Source: Candidatus Micrarchaeota archaeon (GTDB lineage Archaea > Micrarchaeota > Micrarchaeia > Anstonellales > Bilamarchaeaceae). Taken from it: 63,147 nt of DNA. A program made the position numbers and the translations under genes. Positions 5,874 to 28,049 of the stretch are shown here, piece after piece. The notes beneath the pieces are model-generated. The model was given only the letters and a program-made list of their open reading frames with translations. It did not search any database and was not told the origin of the DNA. Location of the stretch: contig JAHJDH010000012.1 in NCBI GenBank assembly GCA_018812625.1, positions 1-63,147 on the forward strand. The letters are read 5' to 3'. The number at the start of each line of letters is the position of its first letter. Positions within the stretch are counted from its first letter, which is position 1.

Positions 5874-8800
5874 TCACCACATCACTCTAAAGTTACCCAT
5901 GATTCCCCATCCCATAGGAGCATTCATAATTCCAGTAACGCTTTCTTCTTGTCCTGCCCATGGACTGAGTTGTTCTGGGGATGTAACTGAACCTGGTGCT
6001 GTTGGCCAGCTTCCTGAGTATCCCATAATATGACCAGAGATTATCGTTCCTGGGTCACTGCTTCCTGGATCCTGCCTTTCATAGGTTACTCCAAGGCCTC
6101 CTCTTAGAACTGGATATGTTTCGTATTCTGCTGCTGGATGAAGGGACCCTTCAGGCTCTGGACTTGTGGATGCATCCTCAAGCATTCTCCTTCTCTCAGC
6201 TCCTCCTTCAAAGAAGAAATGGAGACTAAGAGATTCACCTGTAGTGATGTTTGTTCTTGCCCATGTGAGTCCAACTCCCGCAGTGGTTCTTTGAAGCTCA
6301 TTTAAGTCTGAACACTCCCCTCCGCTTAGCCTTGAACAAACCTGAGCCATTTCATCAGCATTTTCAAAGACATCATCACTTGCAAATACTACTTGTCTTG
6401 TTGTCTGGTTGAAGAACACGTATGAGTATAGCTGTTCGTTTACCCTTTCAGTATTAAGCAGTGTAAGGCGATGACTTAATCCAACCTGCCAATTGGTCCA
6501 TTGCTCGTTTCCATATGTTCTCTGACCATACAATACACCTGCAAGAAGATCCTGTCTGTGATCTTGCAATAACTGTGCAAGTGCACCTATTGTCCAATTG
6601 CCCCCTGGGCTATACTGCTCATGACCTGCTTCGGTAAGAGGTATTGTTAGTCCTCCCATGAGTCTAAATGCTGTCAGTGTTCGAAGTCTTCGATCTCCTG
6701 AGAATGTAAATTCGTAGTCTTCGCCTTCTGTTGAAATGTCCAGTCTGCTAACTCCATGTCCAATGTAGTTGCCAGATTCTTCCCATTCATCAAGGTCTTC
6801 CTGAGTTCCAATCATGATAGAACCTCTTGAATTTGGACCTGTTCCAATTCGGGTTACCATGATGAAATATCTATTTCTTCTCTCTGGACTGCCTCCTTCC
6901 ATTTCTGCATTGAGGTGGCTTCCATAGATAACATCATATCGCTCTGCCTGCTGTCTTCCATGCGAGTTCAATGCTGCTGCAAGGCAAGGTCTTATGTTCT
7001 GCTCAATTATTCTTCGAACTTCGTCTCCAGTTAATTCTGCTCTTGCTGGCGGCTGTCTAATATTGACTTCAGATAAACTTGCTTCAACGCTTCCGCTTGT
7101 TCCTGCTCTTCGTACAAATTCAGTTTCTACTTCTTCAGGAGTTCTCAATACCCATCCAAGAGAATGAACATTATTTTCAATGAGCTGTACCAGTTCTTCT
7201 CCATATGCAGTAGCAATGCGTTCTCTGTTTGGATTAACTCTTCTAAGTTCTCTATATATGTCTACAATTGCTTCTGCAGTTTCGCTGCTTCTTCTTGAAG
7301 AAATTAACATTGCAAGGGGATCTTCATCCTCTTCAATCATTCTTGCAAGTTCAGTTCTCACTTGTGCAACAGGGCGAATCATCCACTCAAGACCATTTCC
7401 TCTTTGTGCATGAACAATATCTGCAAATCCTTCGCCATAAATTCTTTCCATTCTATCATGGCTGTATGCAACACTTCCAAGCCTGATATATGCATCACGA
7501 GCAGCGGCTGGATGATCTGAAGTTCTATGAAGCGTAACATTGCGCTCATATCTTGACAGTTCAATTGAAGGCCAATCAAGAACTCCAAAACCCATATATG
7601 CATCAAGATATGGATTTGCCCTCTCACTTCTTTGTACCTGGAATCCTCCTGTTGAATCAGCATCTTCTACAATCATTATTGATGAATGGGTGTACCCATG
7701 ACCAAGAAGGTCGATGTATGCACGAGCCGGCCTTCCAAATATAAACATTCCATAAAGATTTGCATATGCTGTTTCATCATCGGTCCACTGTCCTGTTGCA
7801 ATTGTGTAAATCCTTAATCGCTCTCCATCATATCCATAACCAAGTGCAAATCTCCAAATATCACTTGTAAAGTCATTTTGAAGACTTGTTGATAATCCTT
7901 GTAGAATCTGTTCTTCGTTTGTTGGATTTTGCTGAATGTCTAACATTGCCTGGTCTATCCTGTCATACAGTCTACTAAATCCAGGAACTCTTTGCACTCC
8001 AGCAAGAATTCCATGTCTCCTTGCCCAGTATGCCATAAGTAAACTTGCATAATGTTCATTCGGTGTTTCTGGCTGATCTTCTGCTGTTCCTTGCCAGCCC
8101 TCCATTCTTCCATACATGTATGTTCCAGCTACTAACCATCCAGTATCACGAGCCTCGTCCTCTCCCCAACCATACATGCTGACAAGAACATTTCTCATTG
8201 TTGCAAAAACTTCCTCTGATTCCTGATCTACTGCTCTGAATTCTCGCAGCAGATCTACTTCAGTATATCCACCAGTAAGTCCATGCCCATATGATCTGTG
8301 CGCGCCTGTCTGCCTTTCATATCTCCATCTGGCACCAGCTGTTAGTGGATATCCACCAACTGCACGGAATTCCATTGATGCTTGTCTTGGAGCAATTGCC
8401 ATTCTTCTCCACATGAATTCTCCAGAGCCCTCTGCCCAATGCGATCCATCTATACTTGTAGAATCCTCAGGATTCATTTCAAGAATCTGTGCTCCCCTAT
8501 AGAATCCTGCATAAATATCTCGAGCTCGTCCATCACTGAGAATGTGGGTTATTGCTTGTCCCATGGCCTCTTCAGCATGTTGTGGAGTCATAGTTCCCAT
8601 ATCCCGAACAACCTGTCCAAGTGCGAGAGTAGTTGAAGTATCTCCCCTAGTAGTTGGAATAGTAAAACCTACTGCAGCGCCATCAAAACCAGCAAGAGCA
8701 GATTCTCCGTTAATCTCATTCCAAACTCCCTGCTCGCGCGCAAGTCTCTCAATTTCTGCTTCGCCGGTTTGAGCTTGCTGCTCTGCATTTAGCCCAAGAT

Positions 8801-11800
8801 GTCTTTCTATTAATCTAGTTCTCTCTGCACCTGAAAGTGCTGGTGCAACTGCACTATTTCTTCCTGCAAATCTAAGGCCTGCCAGAATATTTCTGGTATC
8901 TGTACTTCCATATAAGTAATTGAGTATCTGTGCGTGCGTATCAATTCCATATGCAAGATCATATGCATTTCCAGTTGATCCATCAATGTAGAACAGCCTT
9001 GTTCTAAGCTGGCTTCTCTCATCCTGCAATAACTCACCAACTGTGCCTGCAGGAGCACCTTCTGGAACTGGCGCGCGAAGCTCTGGCGCATGTTCTCCGC
9101 CGACTATAACAAGCATATCTCCTCCAGAGTCTCTTGCAATTCTGGAATATGTTTCAAGAAGTCCAGTGTATCTTTCTCTACTTTGTACCTCTCCAGTTTC
9201 TTCAGTTGTTTGGTTAGCTCCTTCATAGTTGAATCGTATATTTCCTCGCTGCAATCCAACTCCCTGTCCAAATGCAACTGGAATAACTCCAGCAACTCCA
9301 ACTGGAAGTCCTGCTGCCTGAGCTTCAATATCAACATCAGTTTCAGCTGTTTCACTATCTCCTGAATCCTCTGATTCTACTGCTGTTCTTCTATGAGTTA
9401 CAACCCCCCGGCCTCGAACTCCTCCGGTAATTGTTCTTCCCTGTCCAACTCCTCCAACTGCTACTGCGTCTGTTGAAGTTGTATCTGAGTCTGTTGCAGT
9501 TGGGATGGTTCCCTCATGACCGTAATAGCCACCAACTTCCCAATCATGACGAAGCCAATAGCTACTATAGTCTATTGGCATCTCACCAAATAATCTTGTT
9601 ATTTCTCTTATAATAGTTGACGCGCCAAGGGCTCCGATTCTATATCTTTGCGGAATTCCGTGTATCATATGTCTTCCAAGTGTTGGGTGCAGCATGTCAT
9701 ACCTTCTTGAGAAATATTCAGTTGCACCAGAATCAAGTCCAAATCTGCTTGGAGGCTCAATCAAACTTCTTGGCATTGTTGGAGATGGGATTAAATTCCA
9801 AGGTTGTGCTGCTTGTCCATAAAGTTGTGGAAGTGGTTCCATTCCTTCCATTTGCAGGAAGTGGGGCCTGTACCTATATCCTTGAGGATTCCATGGGCTT
9901 TCCATAAGTTGCCTTTCCGGAACTCTTCTAAGTTCATCCTCCATTCTATTGTGATCATATGTTGCAGTAACTCCTGGAAGTCTCTGTCCAATTCTGGCAA
10001 ACACTTCAAGGAAGTATTCTCTGTTTCTATGTGTGCTGTAAGAAAGAGTAGCTCCTGCTGTTGAGTACATCCTGCTGAATATTGTATTGAACGCTTCAAT
10101 TCCGGCAACAAGTGTTCTTTCATCCTGTGCAACGCTGATTATTGCTGGAAGAACCTGCAGAATGAATGGACCAACTAAGTATGGATCTCTTTGACTAATC
10201 AATAATAGAGAATTCATTGTTGCCCGCGCGGCACTTGTTCCAAATTCTGAGCCCAGGCTTCCAATTCTGCCAAGTCCAACTCCAAGATAAAGTGCATCAA
10301 TAATTGAGAGCTGGTTTCTAAGATTTGTTGCTTCTCCTTCAGTAAACCCTCGTGCATCTTCTGCATCAGCAGCTATTCCGCTCTCACGTCTTCCCTGGAG
10401 ATATGTGCTCTCAAGCTGCCCGTAGAATGTTCTTCCTGCAGTAATCAAATCTCTTCCTGATTCACTGCCAAGGAAACGTGCAAGGTCTTCTGGAGTTTGA
10501 AGTCCGCTTTCTGCAGTTCCTGGCGGAAGACTGATACTGTATCTTCTTGCAAGTGTTTGCAGTTGTGAATTTAGAAGGTCCAGATTAATGAAATTTCTAA
10601 ACAGATAATCGTTTGATCCAAACTGGTCTCTGTAATGGTTAATTGCAAGAGTTAAGTTCGCACCAAGATCATCACTGGTTGCAGTTGCAAAAACAAGAAC
10701 TCCTTTGAGTCTGGAATAAACTCCTGGAAGAACATCTGCAACGTGCCTGAAGTTTTGCATAAATTCTCCACGTGCAACTCCATCTCCTGCTTCAAAGCTT
10801 CTTTGTAGCTGCTCTAATGCAGCCGCATCAACTTGTCTTAGGTGCTCAAGATCACTAGTGCTCAGGTTTTCAAGGAACCTAAGTTGCGCTCTGTTTCTCT
10901 CAACCATTTGCACAAATGCTGCTCCATATATTTGTCTCAGTCCTGCAATTCTTGCAGTTCTTGCTTCTGATGCCGGAGTGTTCAAAGCTCCATAAACAGA
11001 ACCAAGTGCATAAAGCAGTTGTTCGTCTTGGTGTCTGTATGCTCTGTGAAGCGCAGTAACTACTCTGGTATATGCTTGTGGATATGCGCGGTATAATGAT
11101 TGTCTTACTGATTCTGGAAGTGCAGTTACTTCTTCAAGTCCTGCTCTTGCCTCTGCAAGCGGAGCTAAATGTTCTCTTTGTCTTTCCACTGCACTGACAA
11201 ATCTATCGCCATAAAGCTCTACCATTCTCTCTCTCGTCTCAGTTCCATCAGGACGAGCTATTGCACGATAAACTCTGATAGTTATATTTGCAAACAATAC
11301 GTTTTGGCCCATTCTCAAATTTTGTTCGCTGATGCCAGTTAAATTTTCAAGGAACCCAAGAACTGGTCTGTGATCATTTATCAATCTGACAAATTCAGTT
11401 CCATGTCTTCTTTGCACATCAGCTACATTCCCGCTTCCTCTTGAAATTGCATTGTATGCAGTTCCAAGGTCTCTGCTAAATCCACGGTCTCCCATGCTGG
11501 AAATAAATGCTCTAAGCTCTGGATCAGCTCTGCCAAGTACAGCAAAAATAATATCTCCGATTACTGCTTGTTTGTCTGGATTTGTAACTCCACTATACCA
11601 GGCCATTCCACTTCGAAGCGATCCAACATCGCTTGAGCTTGCAATTGTTTCTGAAAATCCATCAATACTGCCTGCAGTTCTTGAAAGGTCTCCTCCAGTT
11701 TCTGCAAGATGAATCATTGAAAATGCAAGTTCAACTGATCTTCTAAGTTCAGTTCCACTAATCATGCTTTCTTGCAGTGCTCGCTGTTCTTGAAGAAGAG

Positions 11801-14498: not shown

Positions 14499-14573
14499 TT
14501 CCTGATTCTCCTATTCGGTTTGCACTTGTAGATTATAGTCGCCAATATTATTACAATCCTAATTACAGTTGCC

Positions 14574-14630
14574 TATACTGATTACAACACATCTAATATT
14601 TAACATCGCGTATCCCCCCAAGGGGATTCA
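14574..14630 (-). promoter_or_regulatory. Promoter of the 2874-aa gene: palindrome ATCCCC-N4-GGGGAT, TATA-like TTAAATA, GTATA initiator-like element
   Basis: Same architecture and spacing recur at 49814-49871 and 51210-51264. Confidence 0.55.
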
Positions 14631-14885
14631 CTAAACTTGTATGGATCGGACTGTAATTATTTTACGATAACTTATCTATACTAGTTGTGTTAAGAAAAAT
14701 TAAAAAAGGGTTGTTTCAGAAAGTGACTATCAAAGGTCAAAGTCTGCCTTTGCACAAAATCCAGTTTATTAAAATGCAAAAAAGCTCCACAGATGTTTTG
14801 TCTCCTTAACCTTATCTTTGTTTTCAGTATTCTGTAACTCAAGGATTAAATAATTCTCATGAGTAGCAATGCTTGAGGTTAAAAT

Positions 14886-15539
14886 ATGGCTGATGGAATA
14901 GTCGGAACAATCTCCTGCTGGGGATATGGGTATTCTGTGAAGATGCTTGTCAATGGTAAGGATATAGGCTTATCAGGTGGAAAGTCAGAGGGCAAACGGA
15001 TATTTGGCACTGACCACCCCATGTATGATGAGGCACCTCCTGAAATGCGGGAAAAGTTTTTTGTTCTGAAAAATGGTGCAAATGAGATATCGCTCGAGTT
15101 TAGCAAAACATCTGCCAATGAAAGAGATTATCTGCAAATCTCAATGGAACTGGAAGGTTTTCCTGCGCCGGTTTTTCTGCTACATAGCAGAACAAAAGCT
15201 TCATCTAAAATAAAAAGCTCCATTCAGATCCCTTCTGAAGGTGAGTTCATGCCAGTATTTGTTTCGGATGCAGGAGAGAACAAGCTCGTATTCATCCATG
15301 TGCAGAGTATGAATTGTAATGTCACTCCAATATTGAACGGCAAGGAGGGGATGAGCCTAAATGGCACGCCTGGTCAGGTTGTGCTTGAGAATGTGAAAAC
15401 TGGCAAAAACGAGCTGGTAATTCAATATCAGACTCAAGAGAGACTGAAAATCGCTCTGATAACTCCTGAATGGGTGAAATATCTGGAAACTGCTGATGGC
15501 TCTGAAAAAACAGAGACATTTACATTTAATTCTAAGTGA
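14886..15539 (+). CDS. Hypothetical all-beta protein with an internal duplication
   Basis: GAGGT SD. The halves VKMLVNGKDIG...LKNGANEISLEF and VTPILNGKEG...VKTGKNELVIQY resemble each other. Confidence 0.7.
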   Translation: MADGIVGTISCWGYGYSVKMLVNGKDIGLSGGKSEGKRIFGTDHPMYDEAPPEMREKFFVLKNGANEISLEFSKTSANERDYLQISMELEGFPAPVFLLHSRTKASSKIKSSIQIPSEGEFMPVFVSDAGENKLVFIHVQSMNCNVTPILNGKEGMSLNGTPGQVVLENVKTGKNELVIQYQTQERLKIALITPEWVKYLETADGSEKTETFTFNSK

Positions 15540-15544
15540 GAATC

Positions 15545-16597: not shown

Positions 16598-16606
16598 GGG
16601 GATAGC

Positions 16607-16957
16607 ATGGATACTATATTTGATTACAGCCTTATTTTAGCAGGAATTTGCCTTGCCTTTTTCATTTTGATTTCCATAATAGGCTCGGTTCTTGAGAAAA
16701 AAATGGACAAGGCTAAGCATAAAAGGGCAGGAAAACTCATGATAAAAATTTATTTTGTCCTTTTCATTGTTTTTGGATTTTCTTTGGTTCCAATTATGGC
16801 AGGGATGATTTTTGGATTCATTAAAGATGTGCTCCAGGCCGATCTCTCGGAGTTTGAACTGCCTATAATCCTTTTATTTTGGGGACTTTACATTGTTGGC
16901 TTGGCTATAGCATACCCTGTGATGAAAAGAAGCAGCTTCTTCGAACCAGGAAAATAA
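16607..16957 (+). CDS. Small 3-TM membrane protein
   Basis: Three hydrophobic segments; GGGGGA SD. Confidence 0.75.
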   Translation: MDTIFDYSLILAGICLAFFILISIIGSVLEKKMDKAKHKRAGKLMIKIYFVLFIVFGFSLVPIMAGMIFGFIKDVLQADLSEFELPIILLFWGLYIVGLAIAYPVMKRSSFFEPGK

Positions 16958-16992: not shown

Positions 16993-19392
16993 TTACAGTC
17001 CTCTTAGTACTCTTCGCTGTTGTCCTCTTTCTGGTTGTACTGGCGCAGTTTGAGCTGGTGCTTGTTGCTCTTCAAGAGTTATTCCTTCAATTCCGCGTGC
17101 CCAATGTCCTGCTGGCCTTGTTCTATTTCTTTGTCTCCATGAATACACTGCAAGAGCTGTAAGTGCTTGCGCACTTTCACGTCCGTCTGCTGTTAGTGTA
17201 TCTGTTGTTCCTGGAAACACTTGTCTATTTAATATTCTCAAATCTTCTGCAAGTCTTTGATTTGTTTCTCCAGTAAGTCCTGCAACATGATTGACAAATG
17301 CTACCATTGCTTCAATCATTATTCTTCGATCTCCAGCAGGTGTAGTTTCGCTGAGTCTGACAGATGGTCTTGTTACTGGTTGATATCTTGTCTGTCCTGA
17401 TGCCCAAGCATGAAATGCTCGTCCTACTGGAGTACTTGTATCATGGAAAAGTTCATTGAATACTCTATCAAATGCTCGTGGAAGGTCATCTCTGTTAAGG
17501 TGTCTCAGTGCTCTTTCAAAGACTGGTGTAGTCGCACTTCCTGGAACAGTTGAGGCAACATCAGTAGGAAGCCTTAAGATAGATACAATCCCTTCTGGCC
17601 TTCCGGTTTGCACTGCCCTAAACAATTCGACCTGAAGGTTTTGCCAATGCCTGTGCGCATGTTCTTCAAGCGGGGTTCTTTGTGGTTGTGCCGGCTGTGC
17701 AGTTCTTGTTACTGCTCTTTGCCAGACTGCCTGCTGGATCATTCTTCCAATTTCATTTCTTCCTCTTAAATTTGGATGAAGATGATCTCCTCCGTCATAT
17801 TCAGGTCTTAGCGTTGCCGGGGTTCCGGTTCCAAGCGATGACAAGTCAACAAATATGATATCTGTTCTCTGGCGAAGCCATGCGTCAATTGCATCTGCTC
17901 TTCTTTGAGCACCTGCACTCCATGTGGGATATGTTGCATAAGGAGGACTCCCCCAAACAACTGGCAACACTCCTGCACTATGAGCCCTTGCAATCATTGT
18001 CTCTAAATTGGCTTGAACTGTTTCAAGTGATCTTCCGTCATTTACAATTACTGCTCCTGATATTACTACTATGTTCGGCCGTCCACGTCCGCCGATTCTA
18101 TGGCCATTATATCTTCTTAAAACTCCTGACATTGCCTCTCCTGAAACACCGTCAGATTCAACGCGTGCGCTTGGAGCATCTCTTCTAAGAAGTCTTTGCA
18201 GCTCCCTTCCAATTGCCCCTCCCTCAGTAAGTGAAGCTCCAACAATTAGTACATTTGGATTTGCAAGAGCAGCTGCGTATCTGCTCATATCCAAACCAGT
18301 TTGTGCTTCTGCAACTCTTGTTGTTTCTGCTGGTTGTGCCCCTGGAATCTCAAGAACTTCAGGAGCTTGCCATGTTGCAATTCTGCTTTGCGCTCTTCCT
18401 CTTCCGCGTGCCGGATGCTCCTGATACCATCTTCTCATATATAGTGATGAGCTTGTTACTGTATCTGCATCTATTGGACTGCTAAGGTATGCTCTTTGGA
18501 AAACCAATCTCACTTCTTCTCTATCTGCATCTTGCTCTGGAGTTCGAACTAAATCAACATGTGCAAGTCTTCCATGTTCTGTATCCTGATTGGTTAGGAG
18601 TTGGCTTATTTCTTGTCTGAATCTCGTGTTTCCACCATTTGGACGCGCTTCAAAATGCATCAAGTAATATCTAATATAGAAATTAGCAGCTCTAATTACA
18701 GGATCACTTGCATCTGCTGCAATAGTTCCACTGCTTGCAGTAATTGCACTTTGAAGTCTTGTGAAATCCGCATTAGTTCCAGCTTGTGATGAGAGATATA
18801 ATCTGAATCTTGGAATCTGCAATAATTCATTGAAAACAGAAACTGTTGTTGCTCTTTGATTAGGTGTTCCGGCGGCGCTTCCTGCTCTTTCTCCTGTAGT
18901 TAGGAACTGCTCAACATACCTGCTATTTGTGTGAAGTGCGCTTGCAGCACCTGTGGAAGCTCTGTCAGATCCCCTGGAATGTCTAAGCTGTGTTTCTATC
19001 CACTGTGCAGAAATTGTTGGTCTTGGAGCCTCTCGTGGAGGTGGAGTTGGTGGCCTTGCTGCTGGAGTTCTTTCTCGTGGAGGTCTGCTTCTTGGGGGAC
19101 GGGATCTTGGAGTGGTCCTTGGTGCTGTTCCCCCACCTGTTTCTTCTCTTGCGCCTGGATGTAATTGTCCATGAATTCCACTTGCAATTCCTCTGGCACC
19201 TAGCCGTTCAAATGCAGCTGCATCAGCCTCAGGAGCTCCTCCAATTCCTACATTAATTGCTCTTCTGACTTTTCCAGTCAATATTGCAATAGTATCATCT
19301 GCACTAACAGTAATTCCAGTAACTCTTCTCCATCCACTTGGTCCAACTACGACCAATGTGTTTCCCTGAAGTTCTACTCTTGCGCCTGCCAT
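16993..19392 (-). CDS. 799-aa protein with central SGNH/GDSL hydrolase domain and Pro/Arg-rich linker
   Basis: Block I VLIVGASLTEG, block III VIVNDG, block V DHLHPN. Start overlaps the upstream stop (TAATG). Confidence 0.82.
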   Translation of the reverse strand: MAGARVELQGNTLVVVGPSGWRRVTGITVSADDTIAILTGKVRRAINVGIGGAPEADAAAFERLGARGIASGIHGQLHPGAREETGGGTAPRTTPRSRPPRSRPPRERTPAARPPTPPPREAPRPTISAQWIETQLRHSRGSDRASTGAASALHTNSRYVEQFLTTGERAGSAAGTPNQRATTVSVFNELLQIPRFRLYLSSQAGTNADFTRLQSAITASSGTIAADASDPVIRAANFYIRYYLMHFEARPNGGNTRFRQEISQLLTNQDTEHGRLAHVDLVRTPEQDADREEVRLVFQRAYLSSPIDADTVTSSSLYMRRWYQEHPARGRGRAQSRIATWQAPEVLEIPGAQPAETTRVAEAQTGLDMSRYAAALANPNVLIVGASLTEGGAIGRELQRLLRRDAPSARVESDGVSGEAMSGVLRRYNGHRIGGRGRPNIVVISGAVIVNDGRSLETVQANLETMIARAHSAGVLPVVWGSPPYATYPTWSAGAQRRADAIDAWLRQRTDIIFVDLSSLGTGTPATLRPEYDGGDHLHPNLRGRNEIGRMIQQAVWQRAVTRTAQPAQPQRTPLEEHAHRHWQNLQVELFRAVQTGRPEGIVSILRLPTDVASTVPGSATTPVFERALRHLNRDDLPRAFDRVFNELFHDTSTPVGRAFHAWASGQTRYQPVTRPSVRLSETTPAGDRRIMIEAMVAFVNHVAGLTGETNQRLAEDLRILNRQVFPGTTDTLTADGRESAQALTALAVYSWRQRNRTRPAGHWARGIEGITLEEQQAPAQTAPVQPERGQQRRVLRGL

Positions 19393-22300
19393 TATTGCCG
19401 CCTCGTTCTATGTGCTCTTGCATATCCGTGGATATGATTTCTGTATGCAGTTCTAGCTCCTCTTGCGCTAAATGAAACTGTCATATTCGCTCCTTCTCCT
19501 TCAACTGTTATTCCAAGAGATCTCCTTAGCCTAGCTGATCTCTCAGATGTTCCAGTAATTATTCTGTATAAATCTGCTTTTATTTCTGTTCTAGCGCGCT
19601 GTCTGTTTGGCTGCTGTCTTGCTTCGATGCCTTCCTGATCCTCTCCAAATGCTGCTCTCATCACAACACCATCGCCGGTTCTACGTGTGCCTTCACCTTC
19701 AATATCATTAAACAGTGCGTCAACTCTAGCATCAACGAACTCAGCTATTTGAACTCCGCCGCGCTCTTCACTTTGATAAAAGCTTTGCGCCTCTGCACTA
19801 AGTCCAACTGTTGGAGTTCTCTCTACTTCTGCTGGCTCATCTGGTGCTTCATCCTGCACTTCTGCAGGTTGCCTTGTTTCAAAGCCTGGTCTTCTTGGAT
19901 ATACTGGAGTTTCTTCATGCTCAAGTACTTCTGCCCGCGTTCTGCCAGCTCCTGTTCTTGGTGGAGTTGCGCTTCTTGCATCTCCTCTGCCTCTTCGTTC
20001 TGCTCCACCTGCCTGTTCTCTTATTTCAACTGGGGTTGATCCGCTCCACCAGCCTCTTGATCTATAATAGCCTGATTGCCTATCGAGATACTCATAGATT
20101 GCTTGCGGAGCCATGTCTTGAGTTTGTGCATTTGCTTGAATATGTCTTAGAATTTCATGTAAATTTTCGATCTGATGGCTATTGTCTGCCATCCACTTCA
20201 TCACTCCATTTGTAGCTCGTCCTCCGCGCATTTCAGTATGAGTTATTGCAAATGCAATTGCTTCTGCATATTCACTGCCTCGAAGTGCTCCATCCATCTG
20301 AGCAAATATTCTAGGTGCAACTTGTCCGCTTTCTCTTGCAGTTGCAAGTGCTGTTCCTGGGTTTTCTGCAATCAATGTTGCAAGTGCATTTAAGTCTCCG
20401 TAAATCTCTTCACCAAATTCTCCTTCAGTAAGATTGAATCTGTTGAATGCACGAAGAGCAGCAGTGTTGCTTCCATATGTTCGAATCAGTGATTCAAGTG
20501 TTGATCTAATTTCTGGATCAGTGCAAGCTCTTCGGTCAAGATTTCCTAAGAATGAATTCTGTGCAATTGCTGTTGCGAGGTATAAATGCTGCTCGGTTAA
20601 CCTCTGTTGCAACACCTCATCTGAAGTTTCTCGTCCGTATCTTTGTGAAGAAAATTGTGAAATTGCATTATCTATATATACTACAGGTATATGTCCCTGC
20701 TGAACCTGCATCCAGATAAATGCAAATATGTTTGGATTATCACTGAGGAATGAAACCATATTTGCGTGTTCCTCGCTGATTTGTCCTGATCGAAGCTCAG
20801 AAGTTGAAATAACTCCTGCATCAACAAGCATCTGAGTTGCAACTCCCTGTGCAAATGACATAACAATTCCGCGTGATCTCCAGTTTGGCATTCTAAGGTC
20901 TGCCAGATCAGTTATGTCAAGCTGCTGCTTATGCTCATTTAATAAAATCACATCAACTGCTTCAAGACTCATTCCCCATGGCTGGATTATTGCAAGCAAT
21001 TGTCTTTCTGCTTCAGTGCGGTCTGCACTTCCTTCTGCAGCAGTTCTTCTGGTTGTTAATAATTCATTGATCTCTTCAAGCTGTCCTGCCATTTCTCGTC
21101 CATCTGTGATGAACTCATTCATCATCCTTGGATTCAGGTAATGTCCGCTTCCTTCAAGAAGACTTTGCAATTGTTGCTGGTTTCCTGGTCTTCTGTCAGT
21201 TGATTGTGGAAGTGTGTTTGGCAAATGGTAATAAAATTGCCTTCCACCGTCATCATTGATTATCCAAAGCGCATTTTCTTCTGATATAGAAATTCCAAAG
21301 TCTCTTTGTGCTGCTGCAATACCTTGTCTGATTTCATCTTCATCAGAAAGCATGTCATGAAGCGGCTGATATACAAAATTCCATCCGATATATCCAAGTC
21401 CTGCCCAAGCTGCAATTTGAGGCACCATTCTCAGAGAGTTTGATGGGCGAAGCGCTGCATAAGGTGTTGATCCACCAGCTCCTCTTGATGCTCGAACTGC
21501 TCTATAATATTGAAGTCCTCCCCAATGCACACCTGGTTCATGTGCCAAAAACCATCTACCTGCTCCGCTTACAGATTCACGGACTGTTCCACGTACTGTC
21601 AGGGAAGCGTCTCTTGCAAGTATTCCTGCCTGCTCTGAAATTCCTGGTATTAGCTGCTCTATTCTTGGGTTTGATATTTCTATTGCATGGAAGTTTCCAC
21701 GCATCTCAGGAGTTCTAAATGATCTTAATACTCTTGATACTGGAGTTCCCATATCAAGAACTACCTCCATATTCCCTCCTTCGGCAATTGCATGTTCAAA
21801 TATTCTTCGTTGCTGTGGTCCATAATTTTCCCGAACTGCTCTTGCGACTCTATCGCTTCGAAGCACAGTTGTTATTGCCTCATCCAGGTTTCCCCCTTGT
21901 AGCATCTGCTCTGAAAGGCCTCTTCGAACTGCCTGTGCAACAGGATCCCCTTCTGCAGGGATTCTTCTAATCATGTCTCTTGTTGCATTTCTAAGTGTAA
22001 GTCCTTCTGCAATTATTGTATCTCCGGAAATTGCTCCTCTGCTTTCAAGTTGCAATAATAATGCAGTACGATCTCCAGCTCCAAATTCTGTTCCAAGAAG
22101 TCTTTCAGTTTGTGCAAGTGGCCTTAGTGCAGCTCTCTGTTCCCTTGTTTGATGAATCAATTGCTGATTTTGTTCAAATGCTGTTTCATGAGATGTGTTT
22201 GCCTGATCATGTGCCCTTTCAAGTCTTGCGAGTCTTCGTCCAGTCAATCCTCTTGTTCTTCCAGCTTCAAGATTTATTCGTGCTGTTTCAAGAGCTTGTC

Positions 22301-25300
22301 CTGTTCTCTCAACTACTGCTTCAGAACTTGCAACGCCACTTTCAAGCTCTGCAAGTCTTGCTGCTGCAGTGCGTTCTGTTGCTTCTAATATTAATGTCAT
22401 CTCCTCTCTTGAAAATGGTCTTGCATCAGTCAATTCCATATAAGCTTCTGCTGTTCCCCTGCTTCCAGCTGCGCTTCTAATTGATCCTTGTGTTCTTGCA
22501 AGTGCTCTTGCAAGTGCGGGGTCAGTTCTTGCTGCTGCTTCAAGATGCGGCCTCAGGTTTGGAGAAGAATACATTTTTCTCAAGACTCCTAGATACCCAT
22601 CTCTGGTTCCTCTGCCTGCACTTGTTGCCATTCTGTCTATTCTGGAAAATAATTCAACTGATCTCTGTACACTGTTACGAGCAACATTTCCAATTTCAGT
22701 TGCTTCTGCTCTTGCTTGAACTGCTGCACGTTCTGCTGCCTGAATTTCAGCTGATGGTGCTCCGCCTTGCCTTAATGTCTGGACATTTGCTTCTGCTCTA
22801 GCTGCTTCTGCGCTTGCTCTTCTAATTACAAGAGCTGTTTCTTCAGGACTCATAGTAATATCTGATAATATATCTCCCATTCTTGCTTGTGCATCTTCTA
22901 AAATTGCATCTGCGTTTGGAGGCTCAGCGCTTCTTCTTGCTGCTGCTCTTCTTTGTCTCCATCCACGAACTGCATCACGTGTTCTTCCATATGCACGTTC
23001 TATTACTCCGACTCTTGCAATTCTTTGAACTTCTGGAACAGGTGCTGGGGGTTCTTCAACTGGAGCAGGTTCTCTTACTCCAGTTGGTTCTCTAGGAGTT
23101 CCGCCTCTTCGTCTTCCGCCTTCTGATACTTGCCTGCTTGCTCCACCTGCTGGTGCTCCAGTTCCTATAGGAGGTCCTGATGGAGGAGTGGCACTTGCCC
23201 GAATTGGCGGCATAGTTGTTCCGGCAGTTACTTGTGGCTGTCCTGGAACTTCAATGACATATTCTGTTCCAGTACCTGTTCTTACGACCTCGAATTCCAT
23301 GGTTGCTTCTGCTGCATTTGCTTCAGTAATCACTTCATCCGGAACAAGTCTTCTAAGTGGTCCTGGTCTTTGCGGTGTTCCGAATTCTTGCTGTATTGCA
23401 CGAGTTGAAAATGGTGTATCTATTCCAGTATCAAGTGCATGTCTCACTGCTCTGTGCTGAAGAAGTGCATCTATTCTAGCACCTGCTTGTGGGTTTTCTG
23501 CTCTTATTGCTTCGAGTCTTGCCCGTGCTGCAATCATGCTGCTTGTTCTTGCTTCTGCAGGAGTTGCTTCAAACCTTGCAAGCTCTCCCAAAAATGATCT
23601 GAATCTCTCAGGGTTTGAAATAAATGACGCAAGATCACTAATTGCTACTCTTGCTCCTCCTCCTGGTCCTCTTGGAGGCGGGAATTCCAATCCTCTAATT
23701 CCGCGCACTAGTGCAGCTTCTGCAATTTGGTTTAGTTCTCCTCCGCGAAGTGCAGTTCGAATTGCACTTTGCCTCATAAGATGAGAAATTTGAGTTCTAA
23801 GTCTTGATGAGAATCCTCCGAAAATTTCAAGTGCAATCGGGTTCTGCGCACGAAGCAGTCTCATGAATCTAAACATTGTACTTGGGTTTCCAAGCTCACG
23901 CGCTCCCAATATCTCAGGTGGCGCTTCTCCAAATTCTAGTGCAAATTCTCTTGCATAAATTCTTGCTTGAGCTCTTCCAGATCCTGCAATGGCTGCTCTT
24001 CCCAGAGCAGATCCTCCCATTACTGCCCATGGGAAAACCGCAAGTGCAAACATAAGAGTTCCAGTAGTACTATCTCCTCTTTGGAATGCCTGGTATCCAT
24101 GATAACCTGCATATCCTGAGAAGAAGGTTGCAATTCCTAGATTTGCAATATTCAATCCAGTTGCAATTCTTGAGAGTCGTATTGCATGAGTAGTAGCGCC
24201 AGCTGCCCGGGCTGCAAGTGCGGCTCTGCCTACTCTTGCTGCTGCTCCCATCATTCCAAGGCTTACAACTACAAGTCCTGCCATTGCCCAGCTTTCTGCT
24301 GATGCATGGCCATGAACTCTATATTCAGTTACAATCTGTTCAGCTGCCATTCCAAGGAATATTGCTCCAGACACATACGGACCAACTACTGGGATAAATA
24401 CAGATACAAGTCCAGCTCCAATTAACGCCCACTGAAGCGCTTGCTGATTTGTAACAACTGTTTCCTGCATTACTCTAAGTATTGATTGTGCTCGCTCCAG
24501 TGAAGCAGTTGCTACTTCTCCTTGATGTTCGTAAGCATAGCGAAGCTGACTCATCACTTCACTTTGCGCTCTTGCATAATCAGTAGTTATCTGGGCTGCT
24601 CCACTTTGCGGTATTGCAAATATTGAAGTTTCAAGAAGAGTTGCAATTTGCCCTCTTCTATTGAGCTCATCATCACTGACATTTCCAAAGAGAATATTGT
24701 GGAATGTGCTCAAATGCGCAGATCTATAAAATTCAAAACCTTGCATTCTTCGCTGTTCATCATATGCAGTTCTAACTGCTTGTCTTCCCCCAAGAGCCTG
24801 CGCGAGTCCTGGCGCGTGTGCATGTATAATTTGTGTTGCCATTGGAGAGTTTTCTGCCAGGTATCCCATCAGGGCTTCCTCCCTGCTTGATACTGCCTGC
24901 ATATAGGACTGTTCTGCTGCTTCAAAGTTTCCAGCTAAGATCTGTCTTCTTGTAGTTTCAAGTTGTCCTGTACACTGAACTATCAGTGCTCCAGTTCGCG
25001 CTGCTACTTCTCCACTTGTAGTTAACACGACCTGTCTGTATTGTTCGTTAAGAGCAAGCTGTCCATTTAGAACTGAAAATGCACGTGCAATTCTTGCTTC
25101 TCTGCCCACTTCTCCAAGGAATTCTCCTAGTTGTTCTTCTGGGAATGCTCCATTTAATCCTTGCAATTGTTCAAAGAAAGCAAGTGCCTCTCCAGTCAGG
25201 TGTGGCATTACATATGTTGAAGTTGCCTGAAGCGAGCTGATATAATGAATAAGTGCAGTTCTTCTTGCTTCAAGTGTTACTAATGCTGTTCGCCTTGGTG

Positions 25301-28049
25301 CAAGTTCTCTTGCAGATGGTGCTGAAACTCCTTCTGGTAAATTATCATAAAGTCCAGTAATTTCTACGAGCATCCTATTTACTTCAAGAAGTCTTTCTCT
25401 TGCACTTTGAAGGTTTTCCTGCCTTACTGTTCCTGCTTTAACATGCCCAAGTCTGATATTGAATCTGTCAATTGCCCTGTTGAATTCTGTCATATTTCCT
25501 GTTGTAGCAGCACGTCTAACATCACCCATCAATTGCCTTAATGTTCTTTGTCCACGCAGTCTTGGATCAGTTCCAGCAAAGTCTCTTTCATATCTTCTCA
25601 CATCTGCAAGATCAACATATCCAGGATATCTTCCGCCAGCTCTTGTTCCAAGAGGCAATTGCCCTCTGGTATCTGTTTGTCCATCGACCCAATCCCGTCT
25701 TCCCATGATTCTGTCTTCAAGCTGCTGCGCTCTGGTTAGAAGAAGTTCTGTGTTTGCAATTCTTGCTGAACCTGAATCAAATCTTTCAGCTGCAGCAGTA
25801 TGCTGTTCTATTGTCTGTGCATTTATTTCCATTTCAATTGCTTCTAGCATCTCTTGTCTTCCTTCAACATAGCCAGGGGTTCTTTGTCCAAAGCTGGTTG
25901 AAAAAAGTCCGTATCTCCATCCTTCTCTTTGTCTGCTCTCTGCAGTTCCATAATAATCTCTGGCATATTGAAGAAGTATGTGCGCTCCATTAAAGTCTCC
26001 ATGACTAGCCCGTTCTCTTGCAGTTGCAAGTGCATCTCGTATTCCTTCTTGTCCAAGTTCTCTTCCTGCAATCGCTGTTTCAAGTCTTCCTGTCTCGCGC
26101 CTTATATATGCATTTTGTGCAGCTGCATAACTCTCTACGAATCTCTGTTCAATAGGCTCTCCTGCAAGAGTGAATCTTCCTCCTCTTGCATATTCCATTA
26201 TTCGTTCCATTCCTTGAAGGAAGGCTGCATCAGATTCTGCTACTGATGTTATTCTTCCGCTTCTTCGAACTCCAAGTCTTTCAACTGCTTCGCTATACAT
26301 TACAATGAATGTCAAAACTCTTCTTGCTCTTGTGAGGTTACCTTGTGCAATAAGCTCATCAACATGATTTAGTGTTTCAGTTGCAACTGTTTTTTGTGAA
26401 AACCTTCCCCAGGTTCCTATTCTTGTTCTAAGTTCGCTTGCTGTTGAAGCATATTCATGACGAAGTATTCCATCATGGAACATTTCACTGCCATCTGCTC
26501 CAGTAAGCTCTGCATCCATGGCAGCTTCCATCTGTTCTGAACCTGCAAATGTTCCCCATCTTCTCTGCTCACCAATTGCTGTATATGCGCTTACTATATC
26601 AAATAATCTTTCTGCTCCAGCAACATCTCCACTTTGGAGTCTAATTCGTGCAGCCTGAATTGCTGCTCGGATTCTTTCTCTTTTTGCTGCTGGGCCTCTG
26701 GTTCTATATCCTGCTTCAAGAGAATCCATGTCTGCTCTTAGTGTTGCAATATTGAGAGTATCTTGGAACCTATGGGCCATTGCTGGCGTGAATGGAATCC
26801 TTCCATCAATGATCCTGTTCATCTCTTCATAATTATCCAGGTATCTTCTTCCCTGTCCATTTGCAATCTGCTCAAGAAGACCCATCATCATTGAAAGTCT
26901 TGCAATTTGAACCTCACTCGAATCAAGTGCATCAAGCGCTCTTTGAGCATACCAAGCAGCACTATGTTCTGCTGGAGCTCTTCTCGAAGTTCCTCTAAGT
27001 TCAACTGCCCTTTGCCTCAACTGTTCAACTTGTTCAGTTTCAGTTCTTGGCTGCTCTGTTCCAGTTAATATGTGGTATCTTTGAATCAGTCCGCGAGCTT
27101 GCTCAAGATCAACTGTTCTTTGTCTTCTAAGTCTTGCGAGTAAGCTGTCCATATCCTGCTGAAGGCTTTGAATGGATGCTGCACGGATTCTATCTTGTGC
27201 AACATCTGCCGAAATCAGTTCCAATTGCTGCCTGTAATGTGTGATTGTTGCTATTGTTTCAGTTCTAATTGTTGTTTGTGCGCTTTGCAGATCCTCAGTA
27301 AATTGTTCAATGAACTGCTGGTCTGCTGTTGCATCGTCCTGTGAATATATTGCCCCTTCTCTGGCTTCTCGTCCTCTCTCAATAATAAATCTATATCCTC
27401 GATCTCGAATAACTGATGCCTCGGAACCTTCAATTCTGCTAAGCTGAGGACGGGCTGCAAGCAATCTTCCAACTGCTAAAATATTCATTCCTCTTTGATT
27501 GTTGCGTGTTCCAATATCGATAAGCGCTGATTCCAGTCCGTTTAATACCTCAGCTGGAATGTCTTCAATCTCAATTCCTGGAATCTGGACACTTGTTGGA
27601 GAGCCTGCAAGAAGCAGTCTCATTCCAATATCATAAACTTCTCCGATTCTTACAATCTTATCTCTTGCTTCTGCAAGGGATCTCACTGCATTTCCAAGTC
27701 TTCCTTCATTTGCTTCGGTTACTGATCTCGCAATCACTGTTTCTATCATTTCAAGCTCGTTTGTATATCTATCACCAAGGATAGGAACAGATGTAAGATT
27801 CATTCTTCTAACTGTTCTTCGAAGCATATCTGCATCTCTTTGAACTCCTTCTGATGTTCTTGCTCCAGGGCTTACTCTCATTTCTCCTGCGTATTCAAGC
27901 AGTTCACTGATCTGTGACTGAACTCGTGCAAGTCCTGCTCTAAGTTCCTGCTCTTGTCCTGGACTTACTACTGTTCGAATTGGTACAATAGAAATTGGAA
28001 GGTGACTTTCTTCTCTTGTTTCCGGTCTTCTTCTTTGACGTTCTGCCAT
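19392..28049 (-). CDS. Giant Arg/Ala/Glu-rich alpha-helical membrane protein (~2885 aa) of unknown family
   Basis: 8.66-kb ORF; GGTGA SD before MAERQ (28049). Four adjacent hydrophobic helices at 24000-24431, a further TM at ~21361-21428, TPR-like helical pairs. Confidence 0.9.
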   Translation of the reverse strand: MAERQRRRPETREESHLPISIVPIRTVVSPGQEQELRAGLARVQSQISELLEYAGEMRVSPGARTSEGVQRDADMLRRTVRRMNLTSVPILGDRYTNELEMIETVIARSVTEANEGRLGNAVRSLAEARDKIVRIGEVYDIGMRLLLAGSPTSVQIPGIEIEDIPAEVLNGLESALIDIGTRNNQRGMNILAVGRLLAARPQLSRIEGSEASVIRDRGYRFIIERGREAREGAIYSQDDATADQQFIEQFTEDLQSAQTTIRTETIATITHYRQQLELISADVAQDRIRAASIQSLQQDMDSLLARLRRQRTVDLEQARGLIQRYHILTGTEQPRTETEQVEQLRQRAVELRGTSRRAPAEHSAAWYAQRALDALDSSEVQIARLSMMMGLLEQIANGQGRRYLDNYEEMNRIIDGRIPFTPAMAHRFQDTLNIATLRADMDSLEAGYRTRGPAAKRERIRAAIQAARIRLQSGDVAGAERLFDIVSAYTAIGEQRRWGTFAGSEQMEAAMDAELTGADGSEMFHDGILRHEYASTASELRTRIGTWGRFSQKTVATETLNHVDELIAQGNLTRARRVLTFIVMYSEAVERLGVRRSGRITSVAESDAAFLQGMERIMEYARGGRFTLAGEPIEQRFVESYAAAQNAYIRRETGRLETAIAGRELGQEGIRDALATARERASHGDFNGAHILLQYARDYYGTAESRQREGWRYGLFSTSFGQRTPGYVEGRQEMLEAIEMEINAQTIEQHTAAAERFDSGSARIANTELLLTRAQQLEDRIMGRRDWVDGQTDTRGQLPLGTRAGGRYPGYVDLADVRRYERDFAGTDPRLRGQRTLRQLMGDVRRAATTGNMTEFNRAIDRFNIRLGHVKAGTVRQENLQSARERLLEVNRMLVEITGLYDNLPEGVSAPSARELAPRRTALVTLEARRTALIHYISSLQATSTYVMPHLTGEALAFFEQLQGLNGAFPEEQLGEFLGEVGREARIARAFSVLNGQLALNEQYRQVVLTTSGEVAARTGALIVQCTGQLETTRRQILAGNFEAAEQSYMQAVSSREEALMGYLAENSPMATQIIHAHAPGLAQALGGRQAVRTAYDEQRRMQGFEFYRSAHLSTFHNILFGNVSDDELNRRGQIATLLETSIFAIPQSGAAQITTDYARAQSEVMSQLRYAYEHQGEVATASLERAQSILRVMQETVVTNQQALQWALIGAGLVSVFIPVVGPYVSGAIFLGMAAEQIVTEYRVHGHASAESWAMAGLVVVSLGMMGAAARVGRAALAARAAGATTHAIRLSRIATGLNIANLGIATFFSGYAGYHGYQAFQRGDSTTGTLMFALAVFPWAVMGGSALGRAAIAGSGRAQARIYAREFALEFGEAPPEILGARELGNPSTMFRFMRLLRAQNPIALEIFGGFSSRLRTQISHLMRQSAIRTALRGGELNQIAEAALVRGIRGLEFPPPRGPGGGARVAISDLASFISNPERFRSFLGELARFEATPAEARTSSMIAARARLEAIRAENPQAGARIDALLQHRAVRHALDTGIDTPFSTRAIQQEFGTPQRPGPLRRLVPDEVITEANAAEATMEFEVVRTGTGTEYVIEVPGQPQVTAGTTMPPIRASATPPSGPPIGTGAPAGGASRQVSEGGRRRGGTPREPTGVREPAPVEEPPAPVPEVQRIARVGVIERAYGRTRDAVRGWRQRRAAARRSAEPPNADAILEDAQARMGDILSDITMSPEETALVIRRASAEAARAEANVQTLRQGGAPSAEIQAAERAAVQARAEATEIGNVARNSVQRSVELFSRIDRMATSAGRGTRDGYLGVLRKMYSSPNLRPHLEAAARTDPALARALARTQGSIRSAAGSRGTAEAYMELTDARPFSREEMTLILEATERTAAARLAELESGVASSEAVVERTGQALETARINLEAGRTRGLTGRRLARLERAHDQANTSHETAFEQNQQLIHQTREQRAALRPLAQTERLLGTEFGAGDRTALLLQLESRGAISGDTIIAEGLTLRNATRDMIRRIPAEGDPVAQAVRRGLSEQMLQGGNLDEAITTVLRSDRVARAVRENYGPQQRRIFEHAIAEGGNMEVVLDMGTPVSRVLRSFRTPEMRGNFHAIEISNPRIEQLIPGISEQAGILARDASLTVRGTVRESVSGAGRWFLAHEPGVHWGGLQYYRAVRASRGAGGSTPYAALRPSNSLRMVPQIAAWAGLGYIGWNFVYQPLHDMLSDEDEIRQGIAAAQRDFGISISEENALWIINDDGGRQFYYHLPNTLPQSTDRRPGNQQQLQSLLEGSGHYLNPRMMNEFITDGREMAGQLEEINELLTTRRTAAEGSADRTEAERQLLAIIQPWGMSLEAVDVILLNEHKQQLDITDLADLRMPNWRSRGIVMSFAQGVATQMLVDAGVISTSELRSGQISEEHANMVSFLSDNPNIFAFIWMQVQQGHIPVVYIDNAISQFSSQRYGRETSDEVLQQRLTEQHLYLATAIAQNSFLGNLDRRACTDPEIRSTLESLIRTYGSNTAALRAFNRFNLTEGEFGEEIYGDLNALATLIAENPGTALATARESGQVAPRIFAQMDGALRGSEYAEAIAFAITHTEMRGGRATNGVMKWMADNSHQIENLHEILRHIQANAQTQDMAPQAIYEYLDRQSGYYRSRGWWSGSTPVEIREQAGGAERRGRGDARSATPPRTGAGRTRAEVLEHEETPVYPRRPGFETRQPAEVQDEAPDEPAEVERTPTVGLSAEAQSFYQSEERGGVQIAEFVDARVDALFNDIEGEGTRRTGDGVVMRAAFGEDQEGIEARQQPNRQRARTEIKADLYRIITGTSERSARLRRSLGITVEGEGANMTVSFSARGARTAYRNHIHGYARAHRTRRQ

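Follow-up and report, generated by a model that had tools for sequence, protein, structure and literature searches.

A cohort of large proteins held near lysine-free by selection in a Micrarchaeota archaeon, with a lysine state that switches between congeneric genomes

In a tiny, probably symbiotic, Bilamarchaeum-like Candidatus Micrarchaeota archaeon, a cohort of large envelope- or effector-like proteins is held near Lys-free by purifying selection, with Lys being replaced about one-for-one by Arg (and in part by Gln and Thr), and the total charge remaining unchanged. This Lys state is a property of the organism, each family of the cohort being purged in some species and of normal Lys content in others, with repeated flips. 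Three of the proteins are encoded in a gene cluster of the window considered here, that is, the whole stretch of DNA that was analyzed (63,147 nucleotides of contig JAHJDH010000012.1), in which coordinates followed by (-) lie on the reverse strand.

The first of the three, a giant of 2874 aa (P0001; 5874-14498 (-)) with a Sec-type signal, contains 10 Lys and 280 Arg. Five of these Lys (residues 5, 7, 11, 22, and 28) lie in the n-region of the signal region, which spans residues 1-56 (14331-14498 (-)). The mature part holds the other 5 Lys (residues 168, 617, 775, 976, and 1265) and 280 Arg, with no Lys over the final 1,609 aa (56% of the whole length), and conservation is highest in its C-terminal ~950 aa. 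The second giant, of 2885 aa (19392-28049 (-)), is leaderless and contains 8 Lys and 331 Arg when counted from the ATG, being purged of Lys on either side of a central cluster of hydrophobic helices (~residues 1200-1360). The third protein, also leaderless, has 799 aa (P0003; 16993-19392 (-)), with 96 Arg and a single Lys, K41, and none thereafter. Lys represents 7.8% of the remaining proteome, and the binomial probability of such low counts, against a genome background of 7.8% Lys and 4.3% Arg, is 2e-85, 1e-88, and 3e-27 for the 2874-, 2885-, and 799-aa proteins, respectively. The near-total exclusion of Lys put forward in the original prediction, with Arg in its place, is thus real, and is stronger than had been noted.

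The neighboring genes are rich in Lys, as had also been claimed. The cluster is headed by a 1254-aa membrane protein (28496-32260 (-)), with 97 Lys and 83 Arg, and the housekeeping neighbors have K/(K+R) ratios of 0.5-0.9. The membrane protein ends in ~90 aa that have their homologue at the end of the 2885-aa giant, with Lys in the membrane protein vs. Arg in the giant. Together with this Lys-normal protein, the operon of the purged giants includes a Lys-rich partner gene of 106 aa (28059-28379 (-)), which abuts the start of the 2885-aa giant, and paralogues of it immediately precede the genes of three further large leaderless proteins of this genome. Elsewhere in the window, a 420-aa lipobox protein (49931-51193 (-)) has 6 Lys, five in the n-region and the sixth just past the lipobox Cys, the part counted as mature having no Lys and 31 Arg. 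Its adjoining paralogue of 278 aa (48956-49792 (-)), which is 57% identical, is Lys-normal, with 13 Lys and 15 Arg in the mature part, and serves as an internal contrast that shares the cell surface with the purged protein.

The proposed genome-wide test for bimodality, run on the 1,146 ORFs with a length of 100 aa or more, gives a bimodal distribution of K/(K+R), with a main mode near 0.65 and 11 ORFs below 0.05. These 11 ORFs total 18,267 aa, one of them being a giant of 8,599 aa, and the cohort represents ~5% of the coding capacity. As a flag, the ratio adds the 8,599-aa giant, a second cluster (contigs C28 and C8), a SprT-like zincin, and a HEAT protein. The depletion is confined to this cohort, whereas ~140 candidate exported or lipobox proteins have ratios mostly of 0.4-0.9, and the two ordinary exported proteins selected for comparison (0.67 at 42961-43896 and 0.55 at 54156-54974) are both Lys-normal, which rules out a generic surface adaptation affecting all exports. 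In the cohort members with a signal peptide, the scarce Lys are located in the cytoplasmic n-region, where they are clustered in P0001, C28:5631, C8:6426, C13:26058, and the lipobox protein at 49931-51193. A giant of 6,342 aa in this genome has the N-terminal motif and small partner gene found in the cohort, yet is Lys-normal, so the purge is predicted by neither of these features. Cys is also near-absent from the cohort (0.07% vs. 1.21%), and, being just as low in the Lys-normal orthologues, its depletion is a separate property.

The signal region of the 2874-aa protein consists, in order, of the n-region, a hydrophobic core, N-I-N-N-L-G, and V-M-A/Q-P, these motifs being conserved in the homologues. 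The latter is, judging from its sequence, likely a signal-peptidase site (the slash marking the cut), and cleavage would leave an N-terminal Gln. The signal and N-terminal motif are shared by Lys-free and Lys-normal orthologues and Tat is absent, so an export route that disfavors Lys, which the original prediction had offered as an alternative, is unlikely. Tat export of the cohort is ruled out, given that a search of 25 genomes found TatC (PF00902) in none of them, with control genomes being positive.

The cohort genes have GC contents of 0.61, 0.50, and 0.24 at the three codon positions, vs. 0.50, 0.37, and 0.31 elsewhere in the genome, and AGA, from which AAA is one transition away, makes up 63% of their Arg codons. 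The synonymous sites and codon choice are thus native, which indicates that selection acts on the amino acid, as had been predicted. Between this genome (G000) and G001, only 2 of the 136 substitutions that touch Arg in the three proteins are exchanges between Lys and Arg, and in the flanking housekeeping genes such exchanges represent 8 of 12.

Orthologues of the 2874-aa protein are found in about 17 of the 24 congeners, and its family includes 27 full-length homologues, with 66 representative matches in a profile search; a related-locus search started from a single protein reached no genomes beyond the two nearest ones. Five families that are unrelated and encoded at unlinked loci share one state per genome, Lys-free in ~12 of the congeners and Lys-normal in ~10, each of them splitting the genomes in the same way, with a maximum K/(K+R) of 0.21 in 12 genomes and a minimum of 0.27 in 10. 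The distribution is bimodal, with few intermediates. The Lys state is independent of GC content (0.37-0.68), the purge itself being found at 0.39-0.68, and a control genome (G023) similar to G000 in GC content (0.40) has ORFs below 0.06 totaling 127 aa, vs. 18,267 aa in G000. At least six changes of state are found on a tree of 34 homologues recoded from Lys to Arg, and five on the RpoB tree (bootstrap range 5-6), at least three of which are forced by strong branches. The P0007 lineage is caught mid-transition between the two states, with all three cluster proteins at intermediate Lys, and 27 of 65 Lys found where both Lys-free sisters have Arg, vs. none in the control sister.

The Lys-free state differs from the Lys-normal one by -4.5% Lys, +4.2% Arg, +0.9% Gln, and little else, which indicates an agent that discriminates the amine from the guanidinium group, and not charge. 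The original prediction had held a normal Lys content in the orthologues to count against it, and ~40% of the congeneric genomes are in fact Lys-normal. As all of the cohort families switch jointly in each organism, however, the hazard appears to be lineage-specific, and the Lys-normal orthologues do not refute selection. The on/off switching of the whole set in close relatives shows strong selection and provides a marker, read from sequence alone, of the proteins that probably come into contact with the host. No Lys-directed enzyme was found to track the Lys state, and the transglutaminase core, ThiF/E1-like, and proteasome genes were rejected as the determinant, each being present in both classes. 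The gene contents of G000 and G023 (432 ORFs without a match) are too divergent to indicate one.

Pfam searches of ~20 cohort proteins returned almost nothing other than SGNH, Metallophos, and HEAT, the latter as repeats in one protein. The 799-aa protein scores 42.2 bits against PF13472 (cut-off 32.9), and its catalytic blocks I (GxS), III (GxND), and V (DxxH) read as VGASLTEGG, VIVNDG, and GGDHLHP, which together identify it as a predicted SGNH/GDSL hydrolase. The 8,599-aa giant scores 32.6 bits against Metallophos (PF00149; cut-off 21.5), with the motifs GDxHG, GDxxDRG, and GNHE reading as GDIHG, GDYIDRG, and GNHE, and the BSU1 Ser/Thr phosphatase is its nearest match among PDB sequences (E = 4e-4). 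The predicted domain is a PPP-type metallophosphoesterase, although it could instead be an extracellular phosphodiesterase. Searches of PDB sequences with the 2874- and 2885-aa giants gave no match. The AF2 model of the C-terminus of the former has a mean pLDDT of 56, with long beta-hairpins of low confidence and a best Foldseek E of 0.24, outer-membrane barrels being found only among the non-significant matches, and the structure models of the cohort proteins provided no functional anchor.

The explanation favored here, with a confidence a little short of an even chance, is that the cohort acts on or within another cell, in which free epsilon-amino groups become targets for tagging, cleavage, or cross-linking. 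The host-cell action and the evasion of Lys-directed tagging or proteolysis that the original prediction put forward could both be part of this. The proteins would leave the producer for this cell, a putative host, and act at its envelope, within it, or across it, where the epsilon-amino group of Lys would be the target of ubiquitin-like or SAMP-type tagging and proteolysis, a Lys-specific protease, or covalent cross-linking. An exposed Lys would be a liability, and would be purged, and any Lys that never reaches the site could be kept, as in the signal n-regions, the chaperone-like partner, and the 1254-aa protein, as a possible dock. A functionally indispensable Lys would also be kept, such as K976 of the 2874-aa protein, whose codon (11571-11573 (-)) lies in the motif NPDKQ, and which is present in 33 of the 34 family members, Lys-free and Lys-normal alike. 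In lineages with a hazard-free partner, selection would be relaxed, and Arg-to-Lys changes would return en masse. The cytosol-type domains of cohort proteins that have no signal peptide (metallophosphoesterase, HEAT, and SprT-like zincin) suggest that these may be delivered effectors. The purge of the 2885-aa giant on both flanks of its hydrophobic bundle fits poorly with either flank staying in the cytoplasm of the producer. Against this explanation stand the Lys-normal 6,342-aa giant, the presence of the candidate Lys-directed genes in both classes, the alternative reading of the metallophosphoesterase, and the structure models without a functional anchor. A narrower version, which seems rather unlikely as a whole, is that the purge marks proteins inserted into, or injected through, the host envelope, where the hazard would be a host immunity that tags foreign Lys by ubiquitin-like conjugation, archaeal or bacterial, feeding a protease, and the flips would track this immunity.

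An unlikely account is that the hazard is self-inflicted, the archaeon using a Lys-directed enzyme of its own (a Lys-specific protease, acyltransferase, or cross-linker) on the host, and the co-deployed proteins being Lys-free for self-immunity. The switch does operate at the level of the organism, and the cohort includes a confidently modeled (pLDDT 84), unclassifiable zincin, in tandem multiple copies with invariant HExxH and HEGxxE (HExxH...HEGxxE), which occurs in 11 of the 12 Lys-free genomes vs. 2 of the 11 Lys-normal ones. This zincin is, however, Lys-normal in its two Lys-normal genomes and missing from the Lys-free G013, which indicates that it is a member of the cohort and not its determinant, following the state rather than setting it. 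Nine of its 21 members match the Pfam SprT-like family weakly (best E 7.6e-5), its fold has no significant Foldseek match that would point to a specificity (best E 0.065), and the Lys-rich lipoproteins of the same surface would suffer from such an enzyme too.

It is decidedly doubtful that the cause is physicochemical, with Arg being favored because it binds anionic host surfaces or membranes better or adds stability, or because Lys is made useless by the pH outside the cell or by chemicals that react with amines (quinones or aldehydes). Favoring Arg where it has a function cannot explain near-zero Lys over ~2,800 positions, nor does this reading account for the scarcity of exchanges between Lys and Arg or for the bimodal distribution, and pH or small molecules would also reach the ordinary proteins on the surface of this cell, which retain Lys. 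In its favor, charge is conserved in the swap, and the secreted enzymes of alkaline adaptation show Lys-to-Arg shifts. Arg-rich peptides are also reported to be better than Lys-rich ones at binding and crossing membranes (10.1101/2025.04.14.648709).

A designated nucleophile, with covalent assembly or anchoring on one Lys (K976) and the nearby proteins purged against mis-ligation, is improbable. The near-invariance of the NPDKQ Lys and the recurrence of the residual Lys of the family at a few alignment columns are what such a role would lead one to find, but K976 is equally conserved in the Lys-normal orthologues, some members have no Lys at all (C28:858 of this cohort, and the SGNH protein of G003 and barrel-like protein of G006 among the relatives), and no sortase-like or isopeptide-forming partner was found. 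That a Lys-starved symbiont saves Lys in its bulky proteins, for all their share of the coding capacity, is highly improbable, given that abundant proteins, the ribosomal ones included, are rich in Lys (up to 20%), Lys is used freely in the signal n-regions, Lys-normal giants occur alongside the purged ones in the one genome, and near-zero counts in low-copy giants are not expected from sparing. There is next to no probability that selection on the protein is absent, and that a GC-rich foreign donor or AAA/AAG avoidance (A-tract slippage, or tRNA-Lys depletion during expression) is responsible: the make-up of the cohort (high Ala, Arg, and Gly; low Lys, Asn, and Ile) is like that of a GC-rich organism, and its genes have a slightly higher GC content (0.43-0.45) than the genome (0.39), but foreign origin and GC bias are ruled out by GC3, codon use, the GC-matched G023, and the range of GC contents at which the purge is found, and codon or tRNA avoidance by the 5-7 Lys codons clustered at the 5' ends of several cohort genes, with other A-rich codons (AGA, GAA, CAA, and ACA) in free use.

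In the mostly uncultured DPANN archaea, whose means of attaching to and exploiting their hosts are in question, K/(K+R) could single out those proteins that act beyond their own cell, independently of homology or annotation. The candidates marked in this way are the three giants, the SGNH hydrolase, the phosphatase-bearing 8,599-aa protein, the zincins, and the barrel-like proteins. The binary, flipping state represents a replicated natural experiment with at least five contrasts, in which the hazard may be sought through co-occurring hosts and genes. If the host-immunity reading were true, the ratio would be a sequence-only read-out of the interface proteome and of an ongoing arms race.

Among the known systems, the A chains of AB toxins that translocate from the ER, the analogy drawn in the original prediction, are Lys-poor, which has been proposed to avoid ubiquitination (PMC9327129, PMC13696103). 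In ricin A, cholera A1, and pertussis S1, Arg is kept and Lys is lost, as in the cohort, and the toxins act in a foreign cell, which is a proposal for the cohort. These chains are small enzymes that enter the eukaryotic cytosol through ERAD, whereas the cohort proteins have 200-8,600 aa and are both structural and enzymatic, with no sign of a eukaryotic host, no recognized A-B architecture, and no homology to AB toxins in the Pfam or PDB searches. The Lys depletion of Actinobacteria and mycobacteriophages has been attributed, as a hypothesis, to the Pup-proteasome system (PMC13696103), in which a prokaryotic Lys-directed tag is the proposed selective agent on invaders, as it is here. That effect is proteome-wide and confounded by high GC, whereas the present one is restricted and GC-controlled, with a SAMP/Urm1-like archaeal tag, or another one, as the candidate in place of Pup.

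Another close parallel is the lysine desert (Szulc et al. 2023, PMC10665810; reviewed in PMC13696103), which is defined in the review as 150 or more consecutive residues without Lys, or the lack of Lys over half of the sequence or more. Like the cohort, lysine deserts include long Lys-free stretches or whole proteins, and are read as a shield against Lys-directed conjugation, as proposed here; P0001 is Lys-free over 1,609 aa (56%), the longest stretch here, and P0003 beyond residue 41. The confounding effect of GC bias named in PMC13696103 is excluded, with a genome GC of 0.39, a cohort GC3 of 0.24, and no purge in G023 (GC 0.40). Archaea are named once in PMC13696103, for the GC-driven loss of Lys in halophiles, with no mention of secreted or symbiont proteins, and no published description of a switching, Lys-purged cohort was found in the literature. 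The present case is the cleanest example of selected Lys loss, being free of the GC confound of the actinobacterial and halophile examples. The lysine deserts described are components of the eukaryotic ubiquitin-proteasome system, toxins, and the proteins of Actinobacteria and their phages, whereas the cohort consists of the giants of an AT-rich DPANN archaeon, and its trait, unlike theirs, spans a whole set of proteins and switches between congeners, which makes it a variant of the lysine desert that is itself new.

Lysine is nearly absent from three proteins of the window, as the original prediction had claimed, with 10 Lys against 280 Arg in the 2874-aa protein (5874-14498, minus strand), where five lie in the signal n-region and five, down to Lys1265, in the mature chain, 8 against 331 in the 2885-aa protein (19392-28049), and 1 against 96 in the 799-aa protein (16993-19392). 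Given the genome's own composition, the probability of such counts is 1e-27 to 1e-88; the 1254-aa protein upstream contains 97 Lys, and the Lys content of the housekeeping neighbours is 7-20%. The genome that includes this contig (C35) spans 1.27 Mb, with 39% GC and 85% completeness. Its closest assemblies are one Microflora Danica MAG and one Bin Chicken co-assembly MAG, and one homologue bears the name Candidatus Bilamarchaeum. A pair of Lys-normal genes, one of them encoding HEAT repeats, lies antisense (14886-16597, plus strand) between the 799-aa and 2874-aa genes, and is missing at that position in G001, a congeneric genome, and in other relatives.

The Lys share of Lys plus Arg, K/(K+R), is bimodal among the 1,146 ORFs of the genome, in the test that the original prediction had proposed, with 11 ORFs below 0.05, far from the main mode of about 0.65. 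The low mode includes a leaderless 8,599-aa protein (C32:26504-52303, minus strand; 15 Lys, 929 Arg), a second cluster divided between two contigs, C28 and C8 (one protein of about 1,300 aa, a beta-strand-rich 700/641-aa pair, and a further two proteins of roughly 200 aa), a 297-aa protein on C34, a HEAT-repeat protein on C14, and a HExxH protein on C15/C4. A lipobox protein (49931-51193) lies slightly above this mode, at 0.14 over its whole length, because five of its six Lys are in the n-region; none is in the part counted as mature. A 349-aa lipoprotein-like protein (41182-42231, minus strand), with 11 Lys, four of them in the n-region, 28 Arg, and an intermediate ratio, may be a marginal member of the cohort. 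Two pairs of contig ends overlap (the C28 and C8 ends, and the C15 end with the C4 start) through 46-aa stretches of 100% and 98% identity. Both assembly breaks fall within cohort genes, and given the overlap of C28 and C8 inside such a gene, the 1026-aa and 327-aa ORFs therefore form the single protein of about 1,300 aa.

Of all the results, the comparison of orthologues is the most telling. It traced five unrelated families (both giants, the SGNH hydrolase, the HExxH zincin, and, from an unlinked locus, the barrel-like pair of C8) through up to 24 congeneric genomes, which fall into two classes. The expectation that orthologues would also be Lys-poor held for 12 genomes, in which every family present is Lys-free, and failed for 10, in which every family is Lys-normal (0.27-0.69), and the families change state together. 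Both classes span GC contents of 0.37-0.68. In G023, a GC-matched Lys-normal assembly (0.40), of which 97% was covered, the distribution is unimodal, and ORFs below 0.06 amount to 127 aa, versus 18,267 aa in the genome carrying the window. In the 2874-aa family, the Lys-free state differs from the Lys-normal one almost solely in Lys (-4.5%), Arg (+4.2%), and Gln (+0.9%), with Cys and the charge sum unchanged. The 2885-aa orthologue of a 97%-identical sister genome (G002:C2:151824-160576) is split into three ORFs of 2370, 420, and 175 aa, through either frameshifts or assembly errors. The drift of base composition within the genus is also unusually wide, given that the RpoB sequences of these genomes are very similar, with end branches mostly below 0.15.

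The state has changed repeatedly. With Lys recoded as Arg beforehand, the maximum-likelihood tree of 34 homologues requires at least six changes, with opposite states in well-supported sister pairs, such as P0022 (8 Lys) versus P0024 (155 Lys). The independent RpoB tree of 23 genomes requires five (bootstrap range 5-6), of which its strong branches force at least three, and G020, the nearest relative of the species pair, is Lys-normal. In the lineage of the homologue P0007 (JGI sample 3300039093), all three cluster proteins are intermediate together (0.21, 0.33, and 0.20), alongside normal housekeeping genes. Here, 27 of the 65 Lys of P0007 occupy positions with Arg in both Lys-free sisters (0 in the control sister), and Arg to Lys is the dominant change once the constraint lifts. 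More distant relatives proved mostly Lys-rich in a profile search covering 1.84 billion representatives, and the purge therefore looks derived; the same search found two distant assemblies with the entire syntenic trio (giant, SGNH, giant, near Trm56) purged. The purge is not absolute, and Lys is tolerated where needed: Lys976 (NPDKQ) is retained in 33 of the 34 sequences, spanning both states, and the remaining residual Lys recur at few columns.

Compared with the rest of the genome, GC1 and GC2 are higher in the cohort and GC3 is lower (0.24 versus 0.31), with identical synonymous preferences, and AGA, one transition from AAA, provides 63% of the Arg codons. Between this genome and G001 (73-86% identity), only 2 of the 136 substitutions involving Arg in the three proteins are exchanges with Lys, versus 8 of 12 in the housekeeping genes on either side, which shows active avoidance of Lys as a replacement. 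The GC3, the AGA use, and the rarity of this exchange bear out the selection originally proposed, at the level of the amino acid. Nor are ordinary exported proteins equally Lys-free, given ratios of 0.4-0.9 in approximately 140 proteins, most of them with a lipobox, that carry a hydrophobic signal at the N-terminus, which rules out a general trait of export. TatC was not found in any of the 25 genomes, so the signal-bearing members of the cohort are Sec substrates.

Several other members lack signal peptides and carry domains usual inside cells; overall, few features of the cohort proteins are recognisable. The 799-aa member has an SGNH/GDSL domain, one member has HEAT repeats, and the 8,599-aa protein has a PPP-type metallophosphoesterase domain (GDIHG, GDYIDRG, GNHE) near residue 7,340, with no recognisable features in the remainder. 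In the 2885-aa member, hydrophobic helices rich in Gly and Ala form a central bundle, and Lys is purged on either side of it. The leaderless zincin, of about 370 aa (C15:73166-end and C4:4-1020; loci L121-L149), has an invariant HExxH...HEGxxE and occurs in Lys-free genomes as tandem arrays of 2-6 copies; it matches Pfam SprT-like weakly, and its confident AF2 model (pLDDT 84) has no significant neighbour among PDB folds.

At the start of every leaderless giant, and likewise of the zincin, there is an abutting Lys-rich gene of about 106 aa. The copies of this family (about 106-115 aa; window 28059-28379, minus strand, C32:52290-52625, C6:14371-14745, and C15:72809-73087) are 37-44% identical to that of C32, lie directly upstream of, or abut, the 2885-aa, 8,599-aa, and 6,342-aa giants and the zincin, and may encode a chaperone or export adaptor. 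The motif MA[QE][PRTA], with RR and acidic residues as its usual continuation, stands at the N-terminus or immediately behind the signal of 8 of 19 Lys-poor proteins, versus 7 of 950 others; it is N-terminal in leaderless members and directly follows the signal in two signal-bearing ones, as in VMA/QP (14331-14340 region). Predicted cleavage at the motif would leave an N-terminal Gln, possibly converted to pyroglutamate, with no free alpha-amine. The 6,342-aa giant (C6:14750-33778, plus strand), weakly homologous to the 8,599-aa protein, has the same motif and partner, yet is Lys-normal (0.51), and the motif therefore marks a class broader than the purged proteins, which form only part of it; this giant represents a probably paralogous system, outside the purge.

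The responsible agent distinguishes the amine of Lys from the guanidinium of Arg and acts per residue, spares proteins that stay in the producer cell, applies to a defined set, and operates in some species but not in their close relatives. In the simplest model, which we hold at slightly less than an even chance, the cohort would work at or inside another cell, where Lys would be tagged, cut, or cross-linked; a host immunity based on ubiquitin-like tagging is an unlikely version of it. The determinant was not found: the distribution of transglutaminase-core, E1-like, and proteasome genes does not match the Lys state, and the difference in gene content between two genomes was too big to help pinpoint it. 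The zincin is rejected as a determinant, given that it conforms to the state rather than setting it. Next to this other-cell model, self-immunity to a deployed Lys-directed enzyme is doubtful, followed by a physicochemical preference for Arg, which we consider rather improbable, and the protection of a designated nucleophile, for which we see little likelihood. Lysine economy is very improbable, and causes not at the protein level are close to negligible: in signal-bearing members, the few Lys are concentrated in the n-region, a part that remains cytoplasmic and is removed by cleavage, ruling out Lys-codon or tRNA-Lys explanations. Full-text literature searches turned up the work on lysine deserts, with no description for archaeal symbionts or secreted cohorts.
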